Below are positions 9,356 to 17,452 of a DNA stretch of 64,000 nucleotides, in pieces. The notes under the pieces are model-generated. The model worked only from the letters and a program-made list of their open reading frames with translations, was not told where the DNA came from and did not search any database. Numbering within the stretch: the first letter of the stretch is position 1; every line of letters begins with the position of its first letter. A program made the translations under genes and the position numbers. Source of the stretch: Bacteroidota bacterium (GTDB lineage Bacteria > Bacteroidota > Bacteroidia > UKL13-3); the NCBI GenBank assembly GCA_040388375.1, contig JAZKBU010000007.1:3263-67262 (forward strand). The letters are read 5' to 3'.

Positions 9356-9657
9356 ACTTTCTTAAATTCTATTCGTTTATTTAGCCTCCAAACATACAAT
9401 ACATATAGCATGCATTATGTAGTGAAAACACGGTATTTATAGTAGAATATATATTTTCATCTACTTAAAAATAGCCCTGTTTTAAATGTACTTTTATTGC
9501 TGTTTTTTAGGCTAAACTATTATTTGTAAGAAGTTAACACTATCTCGTTATTCATACTTTGTAATGCCGTATGGTAAATAAAAGGAATAAGATTATGTTT
9601 GTTTGCCGACCAAAAGCAGTAATAAATGGCAGCCATACAACAACAAACCATTACAAA

Positions 9658-10788
9658 ATGAAACAACTTATTACCTTACTTGCTATAGCTATATATTCAT
9701 TAAACTTACACGCACAAACCGACAGATTATTAGGTTGCAGGGCAGAGGGGAGTGGAGCCATATTCAGCTCGTTAAACAATGCCAATACCGCCTTTGCCGA
9801 TATTGATACCATACCCAATATGAAGCTGAGTAGTTCAGGCGAAAGTGCTTTTGATGTAAACAATAACCGCTACTTTATTAAAACCAGTTTAGGCATTACC
9901 ATTATGCATTCCGAAACAGGTGCACTGGTAGATACCATTAGTGCAGGAAGCGTTATAAAAGGCATAGAGTTTGACTTAAACACCAATAAAATAGTAGGAT
10001 ATAAAAAAGTAGGCAATGCACAAATATTTACGGCATTAAACTTAACAAGCAGAAGCATTACCACTATTGATACCTTATATGGTGTAAATGTAATAACACC
10101 CGGTGAAAGCACTTTTGACCTTAGTGGCAGCCGCTATTTTACCATAACAAACTTAGGAATAACCATTATAAACGCACAAACAGGAGCCATTATAGAAAGC
10201 ATTGGCAATACAGCCGATATCAATAATTTAGAATATGACTCCGTTGGAAACAGGTTGTTAGGCGTACGCTGGGATGGAGATGTAGAAATACTGACAGCTT
10301 TAAACCTTACCGATAAAACATTTACCGATATAGATACACTGCCCAATGTAAATGCCATTATACAAGGTGAAAGTACTTTTGACAGAAGCAATGGACATTA
10401 TATTATTAAAACCAATTTAGGTATTACCATTATAAATGCCCAAACAGGAGCCATTACCAATCAACCCAACAATTTAGGCGCATTAAAAGGTTTAGAATAT
10501 ATTAATAAATCAATTGCAGTTGGTATACCAAACATAGCAGTTGAAAATACAGTGAATGTTTTCCCTAACCCGTTTAATACCTATACTACCGTTCAGTTAA
10601 ATATACCTGCCAAGCAAGTAACGCTGGCTGTTTACAATGTAAACGGACAACAGGTAAATACCACACATGAAGCATTTGGTAATAGCTTAATTATAAATAA
10701 AGCCGACTTACCTGCCGGCATTTATTTTATGCACTTACTACAAAACGATACAAACAATATAGTAAAAAAACTAATCATAACCGATTGA
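9658..10788 (+). CDS. Secreted repeat protein with C-terminal T9SS sorting domain
   Basis: True start is probably the internal ATG at 9658, which gives the signal peptide MKQLITLLAIAIYSLNLHAQ. At least three internal repeats of about 80 aa (ESxFDxSxxRYF..TxLGITII.AQTGAI....). C-terminus 'VFPNPFNTYTTVQLN...GIYFMHLLQNDTNNIVKKLIITD' is a Por secretion tail. Confidence 0.7.
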   Translation: MKQLITLLAIAIYSLNLHAQTDRLLGCRAEGSGAIFSSLNNANTAFADIDTIPNMKLSSSGESAFDVNNNRYFIKTSLGITIMHSETGALVDTISAGSVIKGIEFDLNTNKIVGYKKVGNAQIFTALNLTSRSITTIDTLYGVNVITPGESTFDLSGSRYFTITNLGITIINAQTGAIIESIGNTADINNLEYDSVGNRLLGVRWDGDVEILTALNLTDKTFTDIDTLPNVNAIIQGESTFDRSNGHYIIKTNLGITIINAQTGAITNQPNNLGALKGLEYINKSIAVGIPNIAVENTVNVFPNPFNTYTTVQLNIPAKQVTLAVYNVNGQQVNTTHEAFGNSLIINKADLPAGIYFMHLLQNDTNNIVKKLIITD

Positions 10789-10810: not shown

Positions 10811-10898
10811 AAAAGAGTGTTTTCCCTATTTTGTAGAGTAGTTATTACCCTATGAAAAAAGAGTAGTTTTCCTATGCACATAGGGTGTTTTCCCTATT
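10811..10898 (+). repeat. Three copies of the box AAAAGAGTGTTTTCC(C)TAT, plus the palindrome CCTATGCACATAGG, in the upstream region of the 11057 gene
   Basis: Read directly: 10811-10830 aaaagagtgttttccctatt, 10855-10876 aaaaaagagtagttttcctatg, 10881-10898 tagggtgttttccctatt. A fourth copy lies at 24353-24376. Confidence 0.5.
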
Positions 10899-11056
10899 GT
10901 TGTTGACACAAACATTCCGCAAACTTGTACTCCAAAAAATAACTGATTGCACTTATACAAAGTGTAGGCATATTATATTTTGTAAGTATTAACAGTTACG
11001 GACGAAGCTGAAAATCCGCTAGAGAGTAAGCAAAGCAACAACAACAATACATACTC

Positions 11057-12688
11057 ATGTCAACTTTTCAATTTATGCCTCCTGCTAACATACAGGATTT
11101 TGCAAACGATGCAAGCAACCAAGCAGCGTTAATTAGTTTATGGAATAACAACATCAATGGATTTATTCAACAAGGTATGATGGGCAATCCGTGGAATGCC
11201 ACCAATGCACCCGTACCTACTAATTATTTTAATCCGCTTGTAAATAATCCGGATGGGCAAATAATGCAAGCTATTCCTTGGCCTGCTTTTCCGGGTAGGT
11301 TGGCTTATAACTACCCAACACTTACGCAGGTTGAGTTGTTTGCTTTAGCCGATACAGGTTTGGCACCTGCTGATATTAATAACAACCCATGCAATACAGC
11401 TACAGGTAATAACGTTCCTTATTTTCCGTATGGTCCGCGTGGTTGGCAGGATGAGTATTGTGAGTGGGCTGTTACCCGTAACAGCGAAGGTAAAATTACC
11501 CGTATTGATTTTACTTGCGAGAACCCCGAATATTATAATTCAGTTTGGTTAATCAGCCCACAAAAAGTATTAGAGCTATACCAAAACACATTAAACAAAC
11601 CACAAATAGTATTGAACGATTTATGCGTATTAGATAGCGAAAACAATCCGGTTATCAATCCGTCAACAGGGCAGCCATTATACAATCCATTAAACAAATG
11701 GAATATAGGTTCCAACTCAACCGCTAAAACAGGTGGTGCTATGCACTTAACCAGTACACCCAATACCATACAAACCGAAATAGGTTTGGCTTGCGCTTCG
11801 TCAGTACAACGCAATGGTACCTTTACCGATAACAATGCATTGCTTTGTTGCGGGCAATACGGGCAACCACACAGAAACAGCGACCCGACTATAGGCGCCC
11901 AGGTAAATGCTTTTGTAGGCGAGGGTTACTCTGTAACATTGGCCAATCCTCCAGGCTTATATATACAAACACCTGATTTCTCCAGTTACGTGGCGCCTGA
12001 TAATGCAGACTGCTCGGAGTTTTGGACTATAGTACGTGGAGCAGCATCAATGGACGGTATGCCCGGTAATTTTATATTACATGCCGTTTTTGAAGTACCC
12101 TCATCAAAACCATACGTAGTAGGCGATATATTAATTGGCAAGCAAAAAATCAGTTGGGGCTCACAAGTTACCAATACCTTTTTTATGCATATAGTAGCAG
12201 CCGCTTACAGCTCCTCAACACCCCAAAGCTACTCCTGTGTAGGCACACCAACCCCTGACCGAACCTTTGCGCAACCCCTGCAGTTGTTTTACGAAACAGT
12301 ATACAATGCCATGTATCCTTCACCGGTACCTAACCCCGTAAGGCATCCAATAGCCTTGTTAAGTAACAGCACCTATATAGCACCATTTATTAACCAGGGT
12401 ACTACCGCCAATATGGTTATTACGGCAGATACCTGCACCGCAGTAGCCGGCAATGCATCAACCTACCCAACAATTACTTTTGACGGAACAGGTATAACAG
12501 CAACCGTAAACAGTGTAGCGCCTGTTACCTATGCGGTACCCGGTAATTCACAACCCAGTACCTATACCGCTTTGTTTGTTACCGTAACCGTTGCTGCCAA
12601 TGCTACCCAAGGATACAGAAGTTTAAGCGTAGCCAATGTGGGGCAATCCAACCCAATTGCTATGCCAGCTCTGTTAAATGTATTGTAA
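11057..12688 (+). CDS. Hypothetical protein, 543 aa, Asn/Pro/Thr-rich, no signal peptide
   Basis: Long ORF with a clean start, and the same amino-acid composition and 15-bp spacing as the downstream partner. No motif I can assign. Confidence 0.6.
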   Translation: MSTFQFMPPANIQDFANDASNQAALISLWNNNINGFIQQGMMGNPWNATNAPVPTNYFNPLVNNPDGQIMQAIPWPAFPGRLAYNYPTLTQVELFALADTGLAPADINNNPCNTATGNNVPYFPYGPRGWQDEYCEWAVTRNSEGKITRIDFTCENPEYYNSVWLISPQKVLELYQNTLNKPQIVLNDLCVLDSENNPVINPSTGQPLYNPLNKWNIGSNSTAKTGGAMHLTSTPNTIQTEIGLACASSVQRNGTFTDNNALLCCGQYGQPHRNSDPTIGAQVNAFVGEGYSVTLANPPGLYIQTPDFSSYVAPDNADCSEFWTIVRGAASMDGMPGNFILHAVFEVPSSKPYVVGDILIGKQKISWGSQVTNTFFMHIVAAAYSSSTPQSYSCVGTPTPDRTFAQPLQLFYETVYNAMYPSPVPNPVRHPIALLSNSTYIAPFINQGTTANMVITADTCTAVAGNASTYPTITFDGTGITATVNSVAPVTYAVPGNSQPSTYTALFVTVTVAANATQGYRSLSVANVGQSNPIAMPALLNVL

Positions 12689-12702
12689 TCTATTTACAGC
12701 CT

Positions 12703-14238
12703 ATGAAACAAATAAAATTACCCCTGTCAAAACAGCACATTGGTTTAGTTGGCATGTTAACTATATGTATTGGTTTTTGGGCCTTTACCGGGATAGAAAA
12801 AAATGAAAATAGCCAGCCTAACAATTACGATAGTTGTGCGTGCTTTTCGCCCAATAACCAACTATCCAAACTAACCGTATATTTTAACAACCAAGTACCC
12901 GGTGATACCAAGCGGCCATTTACCAATCAGTCGCAAGCCGACTGTTTTGCATGGTCAGAGTTTATAAGCGTAAACTGGCCAACCAAAGGAAACTATTTTG
13001 GCGACCCGAACGATTTTTCACCCGTTGCCTGGGAAACTTATATGCCCCGAAACGTATTGTTTCAGGCCAATGGAAATCCGCCTCCCGCATGGGGTACACT
13101 CGTATCAAACGAGTTTGCAGCCAAGTTTAAAACAGAAAAATTAATATATAATAAATCAACAACCAAAGTGCTTACCTTTTTAGGTACAGGTGTCGATACT
13201 ACTATTGACCTTGTTTTTGGCGACCCGAATCAGGCAGCACCTTTCGGGCATCCCAGTTGGTTAGGTGCACAAAACGGAGTGAACCTGTGGTACGAAATAT
13301 TATTGAATAAAGACTATTATGATTTTGTAGTAAAAACAGGCTATTACAATGCCAAAACACAACACGACTCCGCCAAAGCAGGCATCCCTCTAAACTTTCC
13401 ACAAGGCGTTTATAACGGACAAGTAGGAGCCATTGAAATAAAAGCGGCTTGGATGGAACTAACCGATACCATTTCAGCACACTGGAACCGTTATAAAAAA
13501 TCAAAGGCTTATGTGTTAGACCCCGGTACCCGTAAAATGAGACAAGCCACTGTTGCTTTGGTAGGTATGCACATACTGCATAAAACAACCACTCAACCCA
13601 CATGGGTATGGGCTACGTTTGAGCAAATAGACAATGTGCCCGATAAAACAAGACCAGCACCACCTTATGGTTACAACTTTTACAACAGCAATTGCAAAGC
13701 ACAACAATTAAATGTTCCTGCTTCCGCATTGGGATACGACTCATTGACTTCACCAGTAACCATTCCCTGCAATGCCAATATACCGCCACCTTATTATTTA
13801 AAAGCAGGCATGAAATCCGTGCCTTTACAATTAGAACGTACCAATATAATTAATACCACCAATGCGCAACCAATTAATACCAATATGCGCGATACCATTA
13901 AAAAGTATTACCCAAAATCAGTATGGCAATACTACGAATTGGTAGATGTAATATGGTCGCAGCAGGTACAGCCTAACCCAACAAAACCTATTAATGTACC
14001 CAGAAATTTAAATCCCGGTTATATGAATCCCTTAACCATTGTGGCCAATACCACCATGGAAAGTTATGTGCAAGGTACCAATACCTGTACCAGTTGTCAT
14101 ATATACGGAACCATAGCCGACTACCCGCCAGACTCCGTAAACAATACCATTTTCGGTGATTTTAGCTTTGCCATAGGCGATGCTAAATACCCAAAACCTT
14201 TACAGACAAAATGGAAAACAAGTAAAGGCAAACACTAA
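12703..14238 (+). CDS. Hypothetical membrane-anchored protein, 511 aa, with a single C-terminal CXXCH (possible mono-haem c site)
   Basis: N-terminal TM or signal anchor (IGLVGMLTICIGFWAFTG). 'CTSCH' motif near the C-terminus. Starts 15 bp after the 11057 gene, so probably co-transcribed. Confidence 0.6.
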   Translation: MKQIKLPLSKQHIGLVGMLTICIGFWAFTGIEKNENSQPNNYDSCACFSPNNQLSKLTVYFNNQVPGDTKRPFTNQSQADCFAWSEFISVNWPTKGNYFGDPNDFSPVAWETYMPRNVLFQANGNPPPAWGTLVSNEFAAKFKTEKLIYNKSTTKVLTFLGTGVDTTIDLVFGDPNQAAPFGHPSWLGAQNGVNLWYEILLNKDYYDFVVKTGYYNAKTQHDSAKAGIPLNFPQGVYNGQVGAIEIKAAWMELTDTISAHWNRYKKSKAYVLDPGTRKMRQATVALVGMHILHKTTTQPTWVWATFEQIDNVPDKTRPAPPYGYNFYNSNCKAQQLNVPASALGYDSLTSPVTIPCNANIPPPYYLKAGMKSVPLQLERTNIINTTNAQPINTNMRDTIKKYYPKSVWQYYELVDVIWSQQVQPNPTKPINVPRNLNPGYMNPLTIVANTTMESYVQGTNTCTSCHIYGTIADYPPDSVNNTIFGDFSFAIGDAKYPKPLQTKWKTSKGKH

Positions 14239-14275: not shown

Positions 14276-14308
14276 CCGTAGCCATTAACTATGTGGCTAC
14301 GGGTTTTG
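14276..14308 (+). terminator. Rho-independent terminator hairpin after the 12703-14238 gene
   Basis: ccgtagcca-ttaactatg-tggctacgg: perfect 9-bp stem followed by gtttt. Confidence 0.5.
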
Positions 14309-14332
14309 AATGATAAATAATTTATCAAAGCT

Positions 14333-14362
14333 AGCACACGCTATAAGCGTGTGCTATTCTTT
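14333..14362 (+). terminator. Perfect 10-bp palindrome AGCACACGCT-ATA-AGCGTGTGCT followed by ATTCTTTT (terminator-like, or an operator)
   Basis: Read directly. A degenerate copy with the same downstream 'GTGTGCTATTCTTTAA' lies at 14578-14610. Confidence 0.4.
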
Positions 14363-14374
14363 TAAATATTTTAG

Positions 14375-14610
14375 TAAATTTAAACACCTAATACAAAAAG
14401 GATGCGAGCGCAGGCCAGACAAAAAAGCGGGCCGCGCATCAAGCCTGTGGGGAGAAGCATTTTTTTGTCTAGCGTTTTTGGATACTTTTTTGGCAATGCA
14501 AAAAGTATCGAAGCAAAAAAAGAGAAGAACATTTATTGCAGGCGGGGACGCCTGCAATGGCTATATAAGATATCTGTGCTAACACACACCTATAGCGTGT
14601 GCTATTCTTT
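14375..14610 (+). ncRNA. Candidate structured RNA: a GC-rich intergenic block bounded by two terminator-like hairpins, containing copy 1 of the 88-nt two-hairpin element
   Basis: Local GC is far above the window average (gcgagcgcaggccagac...gcgggccgcgc...gcggggacgcctgc). Several self-complementary stretches. The small ORFs in the track here overlap on both strands. A -7-like TAAATTTA sequence lies just after the first hairpin. Confidence 0.25.
14475..14561 (+). repeat. 88-nt conserved element, copy 1. Hairpin 1 is gatacttttt/aaaaagtatc; hairpin 2 is ttgcaggcg-GGGA-cgcctgcaa
   Basis: About 85% identical by eye to 24156-24242 in the same orientation. In copy 2 the stem changes that are present keep pairing possible. 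Confidence 0.6.
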
Positions 14611-14646
14611 AATTATTGTAATATTACATTTTAAACAACCTTTAAA

Positions 14647-15835: not shown

Positions 15836-17452
15836 ATGAAAAAATTAATCTACTTATTTCTTGGCGTATTTGCCTTATTGTATAACACCCAACTGAAGGC
15901 CAGCCATGTGGTAGGGTCCGACATGAGCTATACCTGTACCACAACACCCAATGTGTATAAGGTTACCTTAAAAATATACAGGGACTGTAGTGGTATTAAT
16001 TTATGCAAAAATTGTGGCGATAATCCTGTTCCTACAGGTAATACAAATGGTTGTAATACCAGCAACGCAGGTTTTTCAACAAATATTATTGGCATGAGTG
16101 GTACGTGTGCAGGAGTTAATTTTGGTAGTTACACATTAGATGCACTTACAACAAATAATGGTTATGATATTATACAAACATGCAACAATACAAAAACAGT
16201 TTGTACCAATTGTAATACCAGAACAGCAGGTACTTTTAGCCCCGGCATTGAAGTATATATATTTGAGGGTTTAGTTGATCTATCAAGTGTGCCTGCATCT
16301 TGTTGCGTAGTAGGCTTAGAACTAAGCCTTTGTTGCCGCAACACTGCATTAACAACTATGGAACCCGGTAATTTTTATACCAACGCCCAAATAAACAGGT
16401 GTGTGAGTGTTTGTAATTCAGCACCCACATTCTCTAACGAGGCTGTAATTATGGCTTGTGTGGGAGTAGACTATGAATATAATTTAGGAGCTATGGATCC
16501 TGATGGCGATTCATTGAGTTATAATTTAGGAGCTTCGCTTGCAACAGCCGGAGCTAATGTAAATTATATTGCACCTTATTCTCCGGCTTATCCTTTTCCT
16601 TATTTTGGTGCACCCAATGCCAATGCTCCTTTACCGGCCGGCTTACATATAGACCCCAATGCAGGCAATTTGTTTTTCAGGCCTACTGGTGTTTTTGTAG
16701 CTAATTTGGTTATAGAGGTTAAACAATGGCGTAATATAGCAGGTACTATGACTCAAGTAGGTTTAACCAGACGCGATGTGCAATTACAAAGCGTTATGTG
16801 TAATCCAAACCTAGCCCCTAAAATAAAAATATACCAAAATGGCGTACTACAAAGCAACAACCAGTTTTCAGTAAGACCCAATCAACAGATTTGTTTAGAT
16901 ATAGTAGCCGAAGACCAAGAAAACAGTTCAATACCAGCCGATACTACTATACTAACATGGAACAATCCTGGTTTGTATGTACCTGCTATGGCCAATGCTA
17001 CCTTTACCAGTAATTACATAGCGAGTTTACGTAGTATAAACGGTCCCAAAGCCGATAGCTTTAAATTTTGCTGGACACCTCCTACAACAGCCGTTAGACC
17101 ACAACCTTATTTGTTTTCAGTAACCGGTAACGATAATTTTTGCCCCTTTAAATCTTTAAGTATAAAAGGGATTAATATTAAAGTGGAGAATCCATTAGGA
17201 GTGAAAGCTATAGCTGCTGAAAACGATTTAATGGTATATCCCAATCCAAGCCAATCATGGGTTACGCTTACACATAAAACCAATTTAGCAGGTAAAAAGT
17301 ATGTGGTTTTAAGTGTAGACGGACAGCAGGTATTAAATGGAAAAATGAATGCTTTTGAAACCATGATTAATGTAGAGTCATTAGCCAATGGTGTTTACCT
17401 GATAGAAATTGAAGGAGCCAATACTAAAGGTTTGAAACTAATAAAAAACTAA
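15836..17452 (+). CDS. Cys-rich secreted protein with C-terminal T9SS sorting domain
   Basis: Signal peptide MKKLIYLFLGVFALLYNTQLKA. Many Cys in the N-terminal half. C-terminus 'MVYPNPSQSWVTLTH...NGVYLIEIEGANTKGLKLIKN' has the Por tail pattern. Confidence 0.75.
   Translation: MKKLIYLFLGVFALLYNTQLKASHVVGSDMSYTCTTTPNVYKVTLKIYRDCSGINLCKNCGDNPVPTGNTNGCNTSNAGFSTNIIGMSGTCAGVNFGSYTLDALTTNNGYDIIQTCNNTKTVCTNCNTRTAGTFSPGIEVYIFEGLVDLSSVPASCCVVGLELSLCCRNTALTTMEPGNFYTNAQINRCVSVCNSAPTFSNEAVIMACVGVDYEYNLGAMDPDGDSLSYNLGASLATAGANVNYIAPYSPAYPFPYFGAPNANAPLPAGLHIDPNAGNLFFRPTGVFVANLVIEVKQWRNIAGTMTQVGLTRRDVQLQSVMCNPNLAPKIKIYQNGVLQSNNQFSVRPNQQICLDIVAEDQENSSIPADTTILTWNNPGLYVPAMANATFTSNYIASLRSINGPKADSFKFCWTPPTTAVRPQPYLFSVTGNDNFCPFKSLSIKGINIKVENPLGVKAIAAENDLMVYPNPSQSWVTLTHKTNLAGKKYVVLSVDGQQVLNGKMNAFETMINVESLANGVYLIEIEGANTKGLKLIKN

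Follow-up and report, generated by a model that had tools for sequence, protein, structure and literature searches.

We analysed a 64,000-nucleotide (nt) stretch of Bacteroidota bacterium DNA (GenBank assembly GCA_040388375.1, contig JAZKBU010000007.1, positions 3,263 to 67,262 of the forward strand; hereafter the window) that encodes two adjacent large proteins, here named A and B. The two genes form an obligate, self-contained pair that recurs across phyla, occurs as a natural fusion and in some genomes adjoins oxidase genes; B carries an export signal and a conserved CXXCH motif, and its modelled fold appears similar to that of cytochromes P460 and c′-β. We tentatively propose that A and B constitute an extracytoplasmic two-subunit haem oxidoreductase allied to tyrosinase/LodA-type oxidases, in which B would be a mono-haem, reactive, P460/c′-β-like subunit and A its catalytic or substrate-binding partner. 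An earlier sequence-only reading had suggested a system not yet described, possibly a redox enzyme of two subunits in which B carries a c-type haem matured in the periplasm, and this is the best-supported interpretation: the pairing, the conserved CXXCH, the export of B, the natural fusion and the oxidase linkage all stand behind it, and a redox function is what they suggest. The pair itself goes unmentioned in the literature searched; the clustering of related oxidases is already known.

The two genes, both with an ATG start in the list of open reading frames (ORFs), are:

11057..12688, + strand: gene A, 543 amino acids (aa)
12703..14238, + strand: gene B, 511 aa

A conserved gene pair and its natural fusion

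The sequence-only reading had described two co-directional ORFs of these sizes lying 15 bp apart; sizes and orientation hold, and the gap measures 14 nt (12689-12702). The shared richness in Asn, Pro, Thr and Gly that it noted agrees with the computed composition (A: N 10.3, P 9.0, T 9.2 and G 6.6%; B: N 9.0, P 8.2, T 8.8 and G 6.1%). Database searches retrieved 1128 homologues of A and 541 of B, with E-values down to 1e-291. No usable match came from Pfam (a set without PF26676), NCBIfam or PDB sequences, whether A and B were entered singly or in the form of profiles. ORF A is 100% identical over its full length to P0001, a protein from a Bacteroidota metagenome-assembled genome (MAG), and a precomputed match to PF26676.1 (DUF8225) exists for P0001 and for all 120 A homologues listed; on this sequence match we assign A to Pfam family DUF8225 (PF26676), a name and accession mentioned in no paper of the searched literature. 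The earlier statement that neither protein has a recognisable domain was therefore borne out by the Pfam, NCBIfam and PDB sequence searches and was superseded by the DUF8225 and IPT/TIG domains of A and the apparently P460/c′-β-like fold of B. The pair lies outside every characterised family that was tested. PHROGs (phage proteins) and PADLOC (anti-phage defence) models gave zero matches for A, B and one long A homologue.

A pattern scan of 185,579 species genomes (one per species) yielded 218 stretches confirmed to contain an A relative, from which 80 loci were kept. In 78 of the 80, distributed over at least five phyla, a hidden Markov model search of six-frame ORFs placed B next to A, downstream and in the same orientation; the two loci lacking a downstream B are contig ends. 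A was found in Bacteroidota (Chitinophaga, Flavobacterium, Saprospiraceae and Aquimarina), in methanotrophic Gammaproteobacteria (Methylobacter, Methylovulum and Methylocucumis), and in Myxococcota, Acidobacteriota, Burkholderia (Burkholderiales) and Beijerinckiaceae. The reverse test, a metagenome scan with a B alignment, recovered B relatives with identities between 27% and 61%. Of the 59 metagenome loci with enough flank, 55 have A beside B, down to roughly 30% B identity and sometimes in the order B then A. The sequence-only reading had raised the question of whether the two genes always occur together, and both surveys show the pair to be kept. Neighbour clustering revealed no third conserved gene, the best other cluster being present in 11 of 81 loci.

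A natural A-B fusion, P0278 (1135 aa), is encoded on nine contigs. It comprises, in order, a signal peptide, the A domain, an immunoglobulin-like (Ig-like) domain and a B domain without its own anchor, an architecture that speaks for A and B being physical partners in a 1:1 ratio, both located outside the cytoplasm. A second joined protein, P0319 (390 aa), consists of the N-terminal part of an A homologue (aa 1–201) joined without a break to a C-terminal B-homologous part (aa 188–389); either a deletion has fused the two genes across their junction, or the protein is a chimera of the assembly.

Domains and conserved residues of A and B

The features of B considered here, all on the + strand, are:

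12739..12795, +: N-terminal signal anchor, aa 13–31 (Kyte-Doolittle scan)
13255..13632, +: β-sheet core, aa ~185–310 (strands 194–201, 244–252, 266–272, 279–293 and 302–308)
14086..14100, +: CTSCH, aa 462–466, predicted covalent haem-c attachment motif, with His466 as the presumed proximal ligand

The membrane anchor previously noted in B was recovered as one transmembrane-like segment (aa 13–31); K2, K5 and K10 precede it, suggesting an N-in/C-out topology. Homologues of B have equivalent anchors or lipoprotein lipoboxes, so that an export signal is present in every case. B has a single CTSCH, as reported, with His466 at 45 residues from the C-terminus and not 40. A CXXCH occupies the same position in 119 of 120 close homologues and in 129 of 130 full-length distant representatives. 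This conservation, together with consistent export, fits what covalent haem attachment requires, and B is predicted from its sequence to carry a covalent haem. Some B homologues bear the NCBI name ‘cytochrome c family protein’; no Pfam family match was found for B, whose superfamily comprises 3022 representatives at 50% clustering (E ≤1e-3). Three distant relatives (P0281, P0301 and P0305) have a second CXXCH 6–15 residues from the C-terminus and may be di-haem variants. In the Methylobacter loci L001, L002 and L035, the only ones among the loci sampled, there is a 177-aa gene without a Pfam domain, which overlaps the end of B by 4 nt (L001, 11165-11698; L035, ~13132-13287).

The AlphaFold2 model of B (predicted local distance difference test (pLDDT) 88.6; predicted template modelling score (pTM) 0.87), obtained without templates, appears to reproduce a P460/c′-β-like fold. 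The five-stranded sheet is described as unique to the P460 and c′-β families of haem-c proteins, in which the His of CXXCH is the proximal ligand (2025 review, PMC11928373). On the strength of the model, we presume that the β-sheet core of B is a P460/c′-β-like haem platform. Five invariant polar residues (E245, K247, H290, K294 and E307) map to the predicted strands, and the family alignment contains no conserved Met; together, these features suggest that the haem site of B is open and reactive, and not that of a simple electron carrier. Two segments quoted by the sequence-only reading, AIEIKAAWMELTD (aa 243–255) and ALVGMHILHKT (aa 285–295), are present and belong to the most conserved parts of the family.

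Known P460 and c′-β proteins (PF16694; PDB 2JE3, 6HIU, 6AMG, 7S5O and 8BRK) resemble B in that they are exported, have a single CXXCH near the C-terminus, display invariant polar residues on the sheet and lack a conserved Met ligand. In contrast, they span 135–200 aa, whereas B, at 511 aa, is about three times larger: an N-terminal extension of ~150 aa follows its anchor, and a further ~150 aa are inserted between sheet and CXXCH. B also differs in having an obligate partner gene and shows no significant profile-profile similarity to P460 once the CXXCH is left out. The link between B and P460, as modelled, appears to reach the fold only, and we do not file B as a P460 family member.

Two features of A, both on the + strand, are central:

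11432..11467, +: motif GPRGWQDEYCEW, aa 126–137, a Trp/Tyr/Cys/acidic cluster
12389..12685, +: Ig-like (IPT/TIG) β-sandwich, C-terminal domain, aa ~445–543

In the AlphaFold2 model of A (pLDDT 92.2, pTM 0.92), the N-terminal domain of ~430 aa has no structural relative in the PDB. This domain retains 46–60% identity across phyla, with dozens of invariant polar and aromatic residues. The residues of GPRGWQDEYCEW are invariant in the 120 close homologues; in 260 sequences with identities as low as 35%, their conservation is 95% or higher, and the homologue alignment shows the cluster W130..Y134-C135-E-W137 to be invariant. The same 260 sequences also keep Cys 112, 135, 154 and 264, His 230 and 342, and many Trp, Tyr, Arg and acidic residues. 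The Trp/Tyr/Cys/acidic cluster is thus a candidate active or cofactor site, judging from its conservation; a cofactor of the cysteine tryptophylquinone (CTQ) type in A is pure conjecture. The window copy of A lacks an additional C-terminal domain of ~140 aa that is found in most homologues (~695 aa). A PA-IL lectin assignment for this domain was not adopted and is kept as a weak lead, with one sub-threshold Pfam match (E 0.045) and no PDB sequence match. One 776-aa homologue, P0086, has an N-terminal extension with an HHH_5 match (aa 12–50) that, at 24.5 bits and E 3.9e-5, stays below the cutoff of 27 bits, and a helix-hairpin-helix is odd in a presumed extracytoplasmic protein.

Oxidase neighbours, proposed mechanism and competing explanations

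The A-B pair or its parts adjoin oxidase genes in the following arrangements:

L083 1993-14397, also L084 and L085: DUF8225 (A), B, A-B fusion, tyrosinase, LodA-like and LodB-like flavoprotein genes, on one strand
L079 (Burkholderia lata) and L077 (Burkholderiales MAG): A-B-lodA-lodB
L106: lodA-lodB-A-B
L050 (Methylocucumis): lodB-lodA, divergent from A-B
L090: DUF8225-B-82aa-lodA-lodB
L152, L154-157, L162, L164 and L168 (eight related soil contigs): tyrosinase-A-B operons
L072 (Nannocystis punicea): A-B-tyrosinase, with tyrosinase after B
L088: lodA, B-like, lodB

Neighbours in L072, L077, L079, L088, L106 and the eight soil contigs were confirmed with Pfam, in which LodA_N (PF17990) and LodA_C (PF18417) score genuine LodA neighbours at 86-281 bits. 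The most telling case is L088, in which a B-like gene lies between lodA (LodA_N 221 bits, LodA_C 86 bits) and a lodB-like flavoprotein gene; its product is a predicted haem lipoprotein with the motifs EVKAAW, WVWATFE and CIGCH. Clustering of lodA operons with tyrosinases and multicopper oxidases has been described, with the A-B pair unmentioned there (PMC4417212). Two independent A-less B relatives adjoin aldehyde dehydrogenase genes (L137, 7926-9542; L089, 1352-2770), an arrangement that would weakly fit amine or alcohol oxidation and hints that proteins of the B family may act in aldehyde-producing reactions.

Among the closest known systems we count LodA/LodB and GoxA/GoxB, MauG with pre-methylamine dehydrogenase, and quinohaemoprotein amine dehydrogenase (QHNDH). 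MauG is a haem enzyme that generates a protein-derived cofactor, tryptophan tryptophylquinone, in pre-methylamine dehydrogenase. Like A-B, this system combines a periplasmic c-haem protein with a partner holding conserved Trp residues; unlike B, which has one CXXCH and an apparently P460-like fold, MauG is di-haem with a cytochrome c peroxidase fold, and mau clusters contain many more genes than the self-contained A-B pair. The LodA/LodB and GoxA/GoxB systems, each a CTQ amino-acid oxidase with a flavoprotein, share with A-B the order of a large, signal-less, conserved protein followed by a dedicated redox partner, and LodA/LodB is likewise patchy across phyla (PMC4417212). LodA/LodB is also physically linked to A-B in several genomes, including the B-like gene inside one lod operon. 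In contrast to LodA, A has neither the LodA_N nor the LodA_C domain, and its partner B is an exported, predicted c-haem protein, whereas LodB is a cytoplasmic flavoprotein. We rejected A as a LodA homologue: when its profile was compared by hhalign with an alignment of six LodA sequences, the probability was 0.06%, and neither LodA domain matched.

The mechanism we propose, tentatively, is as follows. B would be exported by the Sec pathway, tethered at the outer face of the inner membrane, and loaded with one covalent c-type haem at C462/C465/H466, which would rest on the P460/c′-β-like sheet platform lined by E245, K247, H290, K294 and E307. A would supply the substrate-binding or catalytic site through its W130/Y134/C135/W137 cluster with H230, H342 and the four invariant Cys, while its Ig-like domain and, in most homologues, possibly the lectin-like domain, for which the evidence is weak, would serve docking or surface binding. 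The two would act as a 1:1 complex in which B accepts electrons from A or handles a small oxidant or product of the A reaction (O2, H2O2 or N-oxides), and B-like proteins would serve quinoprotein amine oxidases of the LodA type in the same way. The A-B module would belong to the functional neighbourhood of tyrosinase and LodA/LodB, acting in the extracellular oxidation of amino acids, amines or phenolics. The pairing, the fusion, the export signals of B, the conserved CXXCH, the fold similarity and the oxidase synteny are observed, whereas haem incorporation, complex formation, the choice of catalytic subunit, the substrate, a passage of signal-less A to B and the redox function are inferred.

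Several observations weigh against this proposal. No signal peptide or hydrophobic N-terminus of A was found in the window copy or in any of the 120 close homologues (0/120), so that, as encoded, A and the exported B would lie on opposite sides of the membrane. The oxidase synteny occurs in a minority of loci, several of them closely related to each other. B relatives without A exist (L086, L089, L137, L158, L165 and L169, mostly among the most divergent), which implies that B can work without A. PF16694 matched neither B nor any of 10 diverse relatives. In hhalign comparisons of full-length B with P460 profiles, the probability was at most 3% and insignificant, with the CTSCH of B lined up with the P460 CXXCH; the profiles were built from an N. 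europaea P460 sequence, 100% identical to PDB 2JE2/2JE3, with retrieved homologues of 150–229 aa. Lastly, a sheet-only control without the CXXCH region scored 12.0 against block-shuffled decoys with a mean of 13.8 and a maximum of 19.6.

This control bears on an alignment made after excision of the N-terminal extension and the ~150-aa insertion of B, which reached P 9e-4 and a probability of 22%, not significant, and paired K247 with Lys70 (the P460 cross-link), H290 with Glu96 (catalytic) and CXXCH with CXXCH. Since the sheet-only score fell below the decoy mean, the 22% probability stems from the CXXCH region; the mapping of H290 also shifted in the control. Both of the local alignments set K247 opposite Lys70 of N. 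europaea P460, and neither was significant; a Lys cross-linked to the haem meso-carbon is what separates P460 from c′-β. We therefore rejected the residue equivalences between B and P460 as evidence and treat them as hypothetical.

An unlikely alternative, which would parallel MauG acting on pre-methylamine dehydrogenase or LodB on LodA, is that B is a haem-dependent maturase that would install a protein-derived cofactor or cross-link in the Trp/Tyr/Cys cluster of A, mature A being the sole working enzyme. The arrangement, in which each large conserved protein is strictly accompanied by one adjacent redox partner, mirrors lodA-lodB, in which LodB is needed to generate active LodA (PMC4417212); the invariant W130-x3-Y134-C135-x-W137 and four invariant Cys of A would suit such processing, and A-B is co-located with other cofactor-maturing systems. 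In L088, however, the B-like gene stands between lodA and lodB, beside a known maturase and not in place of LodB, and this co-existence favours a redox or catalytic role for B over that of a stand-in for the maturase. The stable, covalent fusion of A and B is also easier to reconcile with a permanent complex than with a maturase that acts transiently, homology between A and LodA was not detected, and B has one haem site and not the di-haem peroxidase fold of MauG.

Doubtful to a similar degree is the possibility that B alone is the enzyme, an enlarged P460/c′-β-type catalyst acting on NH2OH, NO, H2O2 or amines, with A as a non-catalytic accessory for docking, delivery or adhesion. The fold of B and its invariant polar pocket with Lys and His are consistent with this, as are the A-less B relatives, two of them beside aldehyde dehydrogenase genes, and the occurrence of the pair in methanotrophs, which also use P460 and c′-β (PMC11928373). 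The Ig-like domain of A and the extra C-terminal domain with a weak PA-IL-like signature in most homologues would suit an accessory role; yet the ~430-aa domain of A, at its 46–60% identity across phyla, is more conserved than a usual scaffold. Moreover, the equivalence to P460 catalytic residues lacks statistical support, and nitrogen-cycle genes were not found among the neighbours.

We consider it very unlikely that the two proteins occupy separate compartments, with signal-less A in the cytoplasm and B in the periplasm, joined by a pathway or regulon and not by physical contact. The absence of a signal peptide from A, claimed by the sequence-only reading, was upheld: the window copy has no hydrophobic N-terminus and no space for an upstream ORF extension, its 120 close homologues are all (120/120) signal-less, and B is clearly exported. 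The fusion, however, sets A behind a signal peptide and drops the B anchor, and in a clade comprising Lewinella, Ulvibacter and Saprospiraceae (eight loci) A itself is a lipoprotein, its lipoprotein signal peptide preceding an F-x-F-x-T-P-A motif. The four invariant Cys and the Ig and lectin-like domains of A are likewise typical of extracytoplasmic proteins. LodA, moreover, is extracellular by experiment although signal-less, while its partner LodB is intracellular (PMC2855505), and both the LodA-like and the long tyrosinase sequences beside A-B are without N-terminal signal peptides. Export of A by twin-arginine translocation was considered for its conserved N-terminal F-x-F-R-T-P-A (RRFLTPA in one Corallococcus locus) and rejected, as no hydrophobic region follows.

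A non-redox, structural or cell-surface pair with the CXXCH as a haem-free disulfide or metal motif is hardly credible: no haem protein family was detected by sequence and the Ig-like and lectin-like domains suggest surface roles, but the exact C-x-x-C-H, His included, is kept in ~99% of relatives across deep divergence, the template-free model of B appears to give a fold known only from c-haem proteins, and the pair is linked to oxidase genes.

A broader form of the two-subunit oxidoreductase proposal is quite unlikely in our estimation. It holds that B would be a third, partner-dependent P460/c′-β branch with either a Lys247-haem cross-link or a new His/Lys pocket, that A would be a new fold with a Trp/Tyr/Cys-derived cofactor, and that the two would make up a new class of extracellular oxidase working alongside tyrosinase and LodA, with A, like LodA, leaving the cell without a signal peptide. 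If the main two-subunit proposal is correct, a large family of partner-coupled enzymes would share the P460/c′-β haem fold, which has been described as unique to two families of small proteins, and A-B would be a fourth player in the ‘oxidase islands’ of tyrosinase, multicopper oxidase and LodA, which together may have a part in biofilms, melanisation and microbial competition. After LodA, A would also offer a second tractable example of a large protein resembling an oxidase that functions outside the cell while lacking a signal peptide. Biotechnology has an interest in secreted oxidases, and P460-type haems are relevant to N2O and NO chemistry.

Non-coding surroundings and flanking genes

Three non-coding elements, all on the + strand, surround the two genes:

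10811-10829, 10857-10875 and 10879-10897, +: three copies of a 19-nt box, AAAAGAGTGTTTTCCCTAT and variants, 160–245 nt upstream of A
10998..11032, +: DUF805b-like cis-regulatory RNA motif in the 5′ untranslated region (5′ UTR) of A, 25 nt before the start codon
14276..14307, +: terminator-like hairpin closing the operon, with a perfect 9-bp stem CCGTAGCCA/TGGCTACGG (14276-14284 / 14294-14302), a 9-nt loop and GTTTT

An Rfam scan of the whole window returned one match, RF02914 (DUF805b), over its full length (1–35) with 32.1 bits against a gathering score of 35.6 and E-values ranging from 1e-7 to 3.5e-5. The motif folds into a 4-bp hairpin and a loop with GAAAA, followed by a conserved GAGUA(G/A)G tail, and its closing base pair is A-U in some instances and C-G in others. 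A regular expression for the motif matched 17 sources, the window included, roughly 10–60 nt upstream of A, with five other, mostly weak matches in 2.4 Mb. The 16 loci outside the window are diverse Bacteroidota. The DUF805b-like element, which was absent from the earlier list of features, is a genuine cassette-associated 5′-UTR element in Bacteroidota. Its name refers to another gene family (DUF805).

Locus L003 (CAYTWI010000031.1), a contig that carries the label ‘uncultured Bifidobacterium sp.’ and is probably mis-binned, is syntenic with the Bacteroidota-like window, at ~85% nucleotide identity across a stretch exceeding 12 kb. The sequence-only reading had treated the repeat boxes, the terminator and a downstream GC-rich block as a frame around the cassette. 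The boxes are present as described, and beyond the window they were seen only in L003 and not in the other upstream regions compared. Their core 11-mer, GTTTTCCCTAT, has eight matches in the window against 1.9 expected, and the boxes are possibly a promoter or operator region. The terminator is present in the sequence as a perfect 9-bp hairpin with GTTTT, inside the region of synteny with L003, whose end is at 14320; a consensus scan missed it because its tail has only four T.

The GC-rich block (14404-14564, ~160 nt) is flanked by near-identical hairpin repeats, AGCACACGCTATAAGCGTGTGCTATTCTTT and ACACACCTATAGCGTGTGCTATTCTTTAA (14332-14362 and 14583-14612). Its role as part of the frame did not survive, as two further copies lie elsewhere in L003 (16099-16218 and 17909-18060), which places it among dispersed repeats and outside the cassette; from its appearance, a small repeat of dispersed or mobile type has inserted beside the terminator. 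The genes that flank the cassette on the + strand (9571-10788 and 15836-17452) are not kept beside it in other loci. Both are large and secreted-looking, and their C-termini (...VYPNPS...) resemble, by eye, type IX secretion sorting domains.

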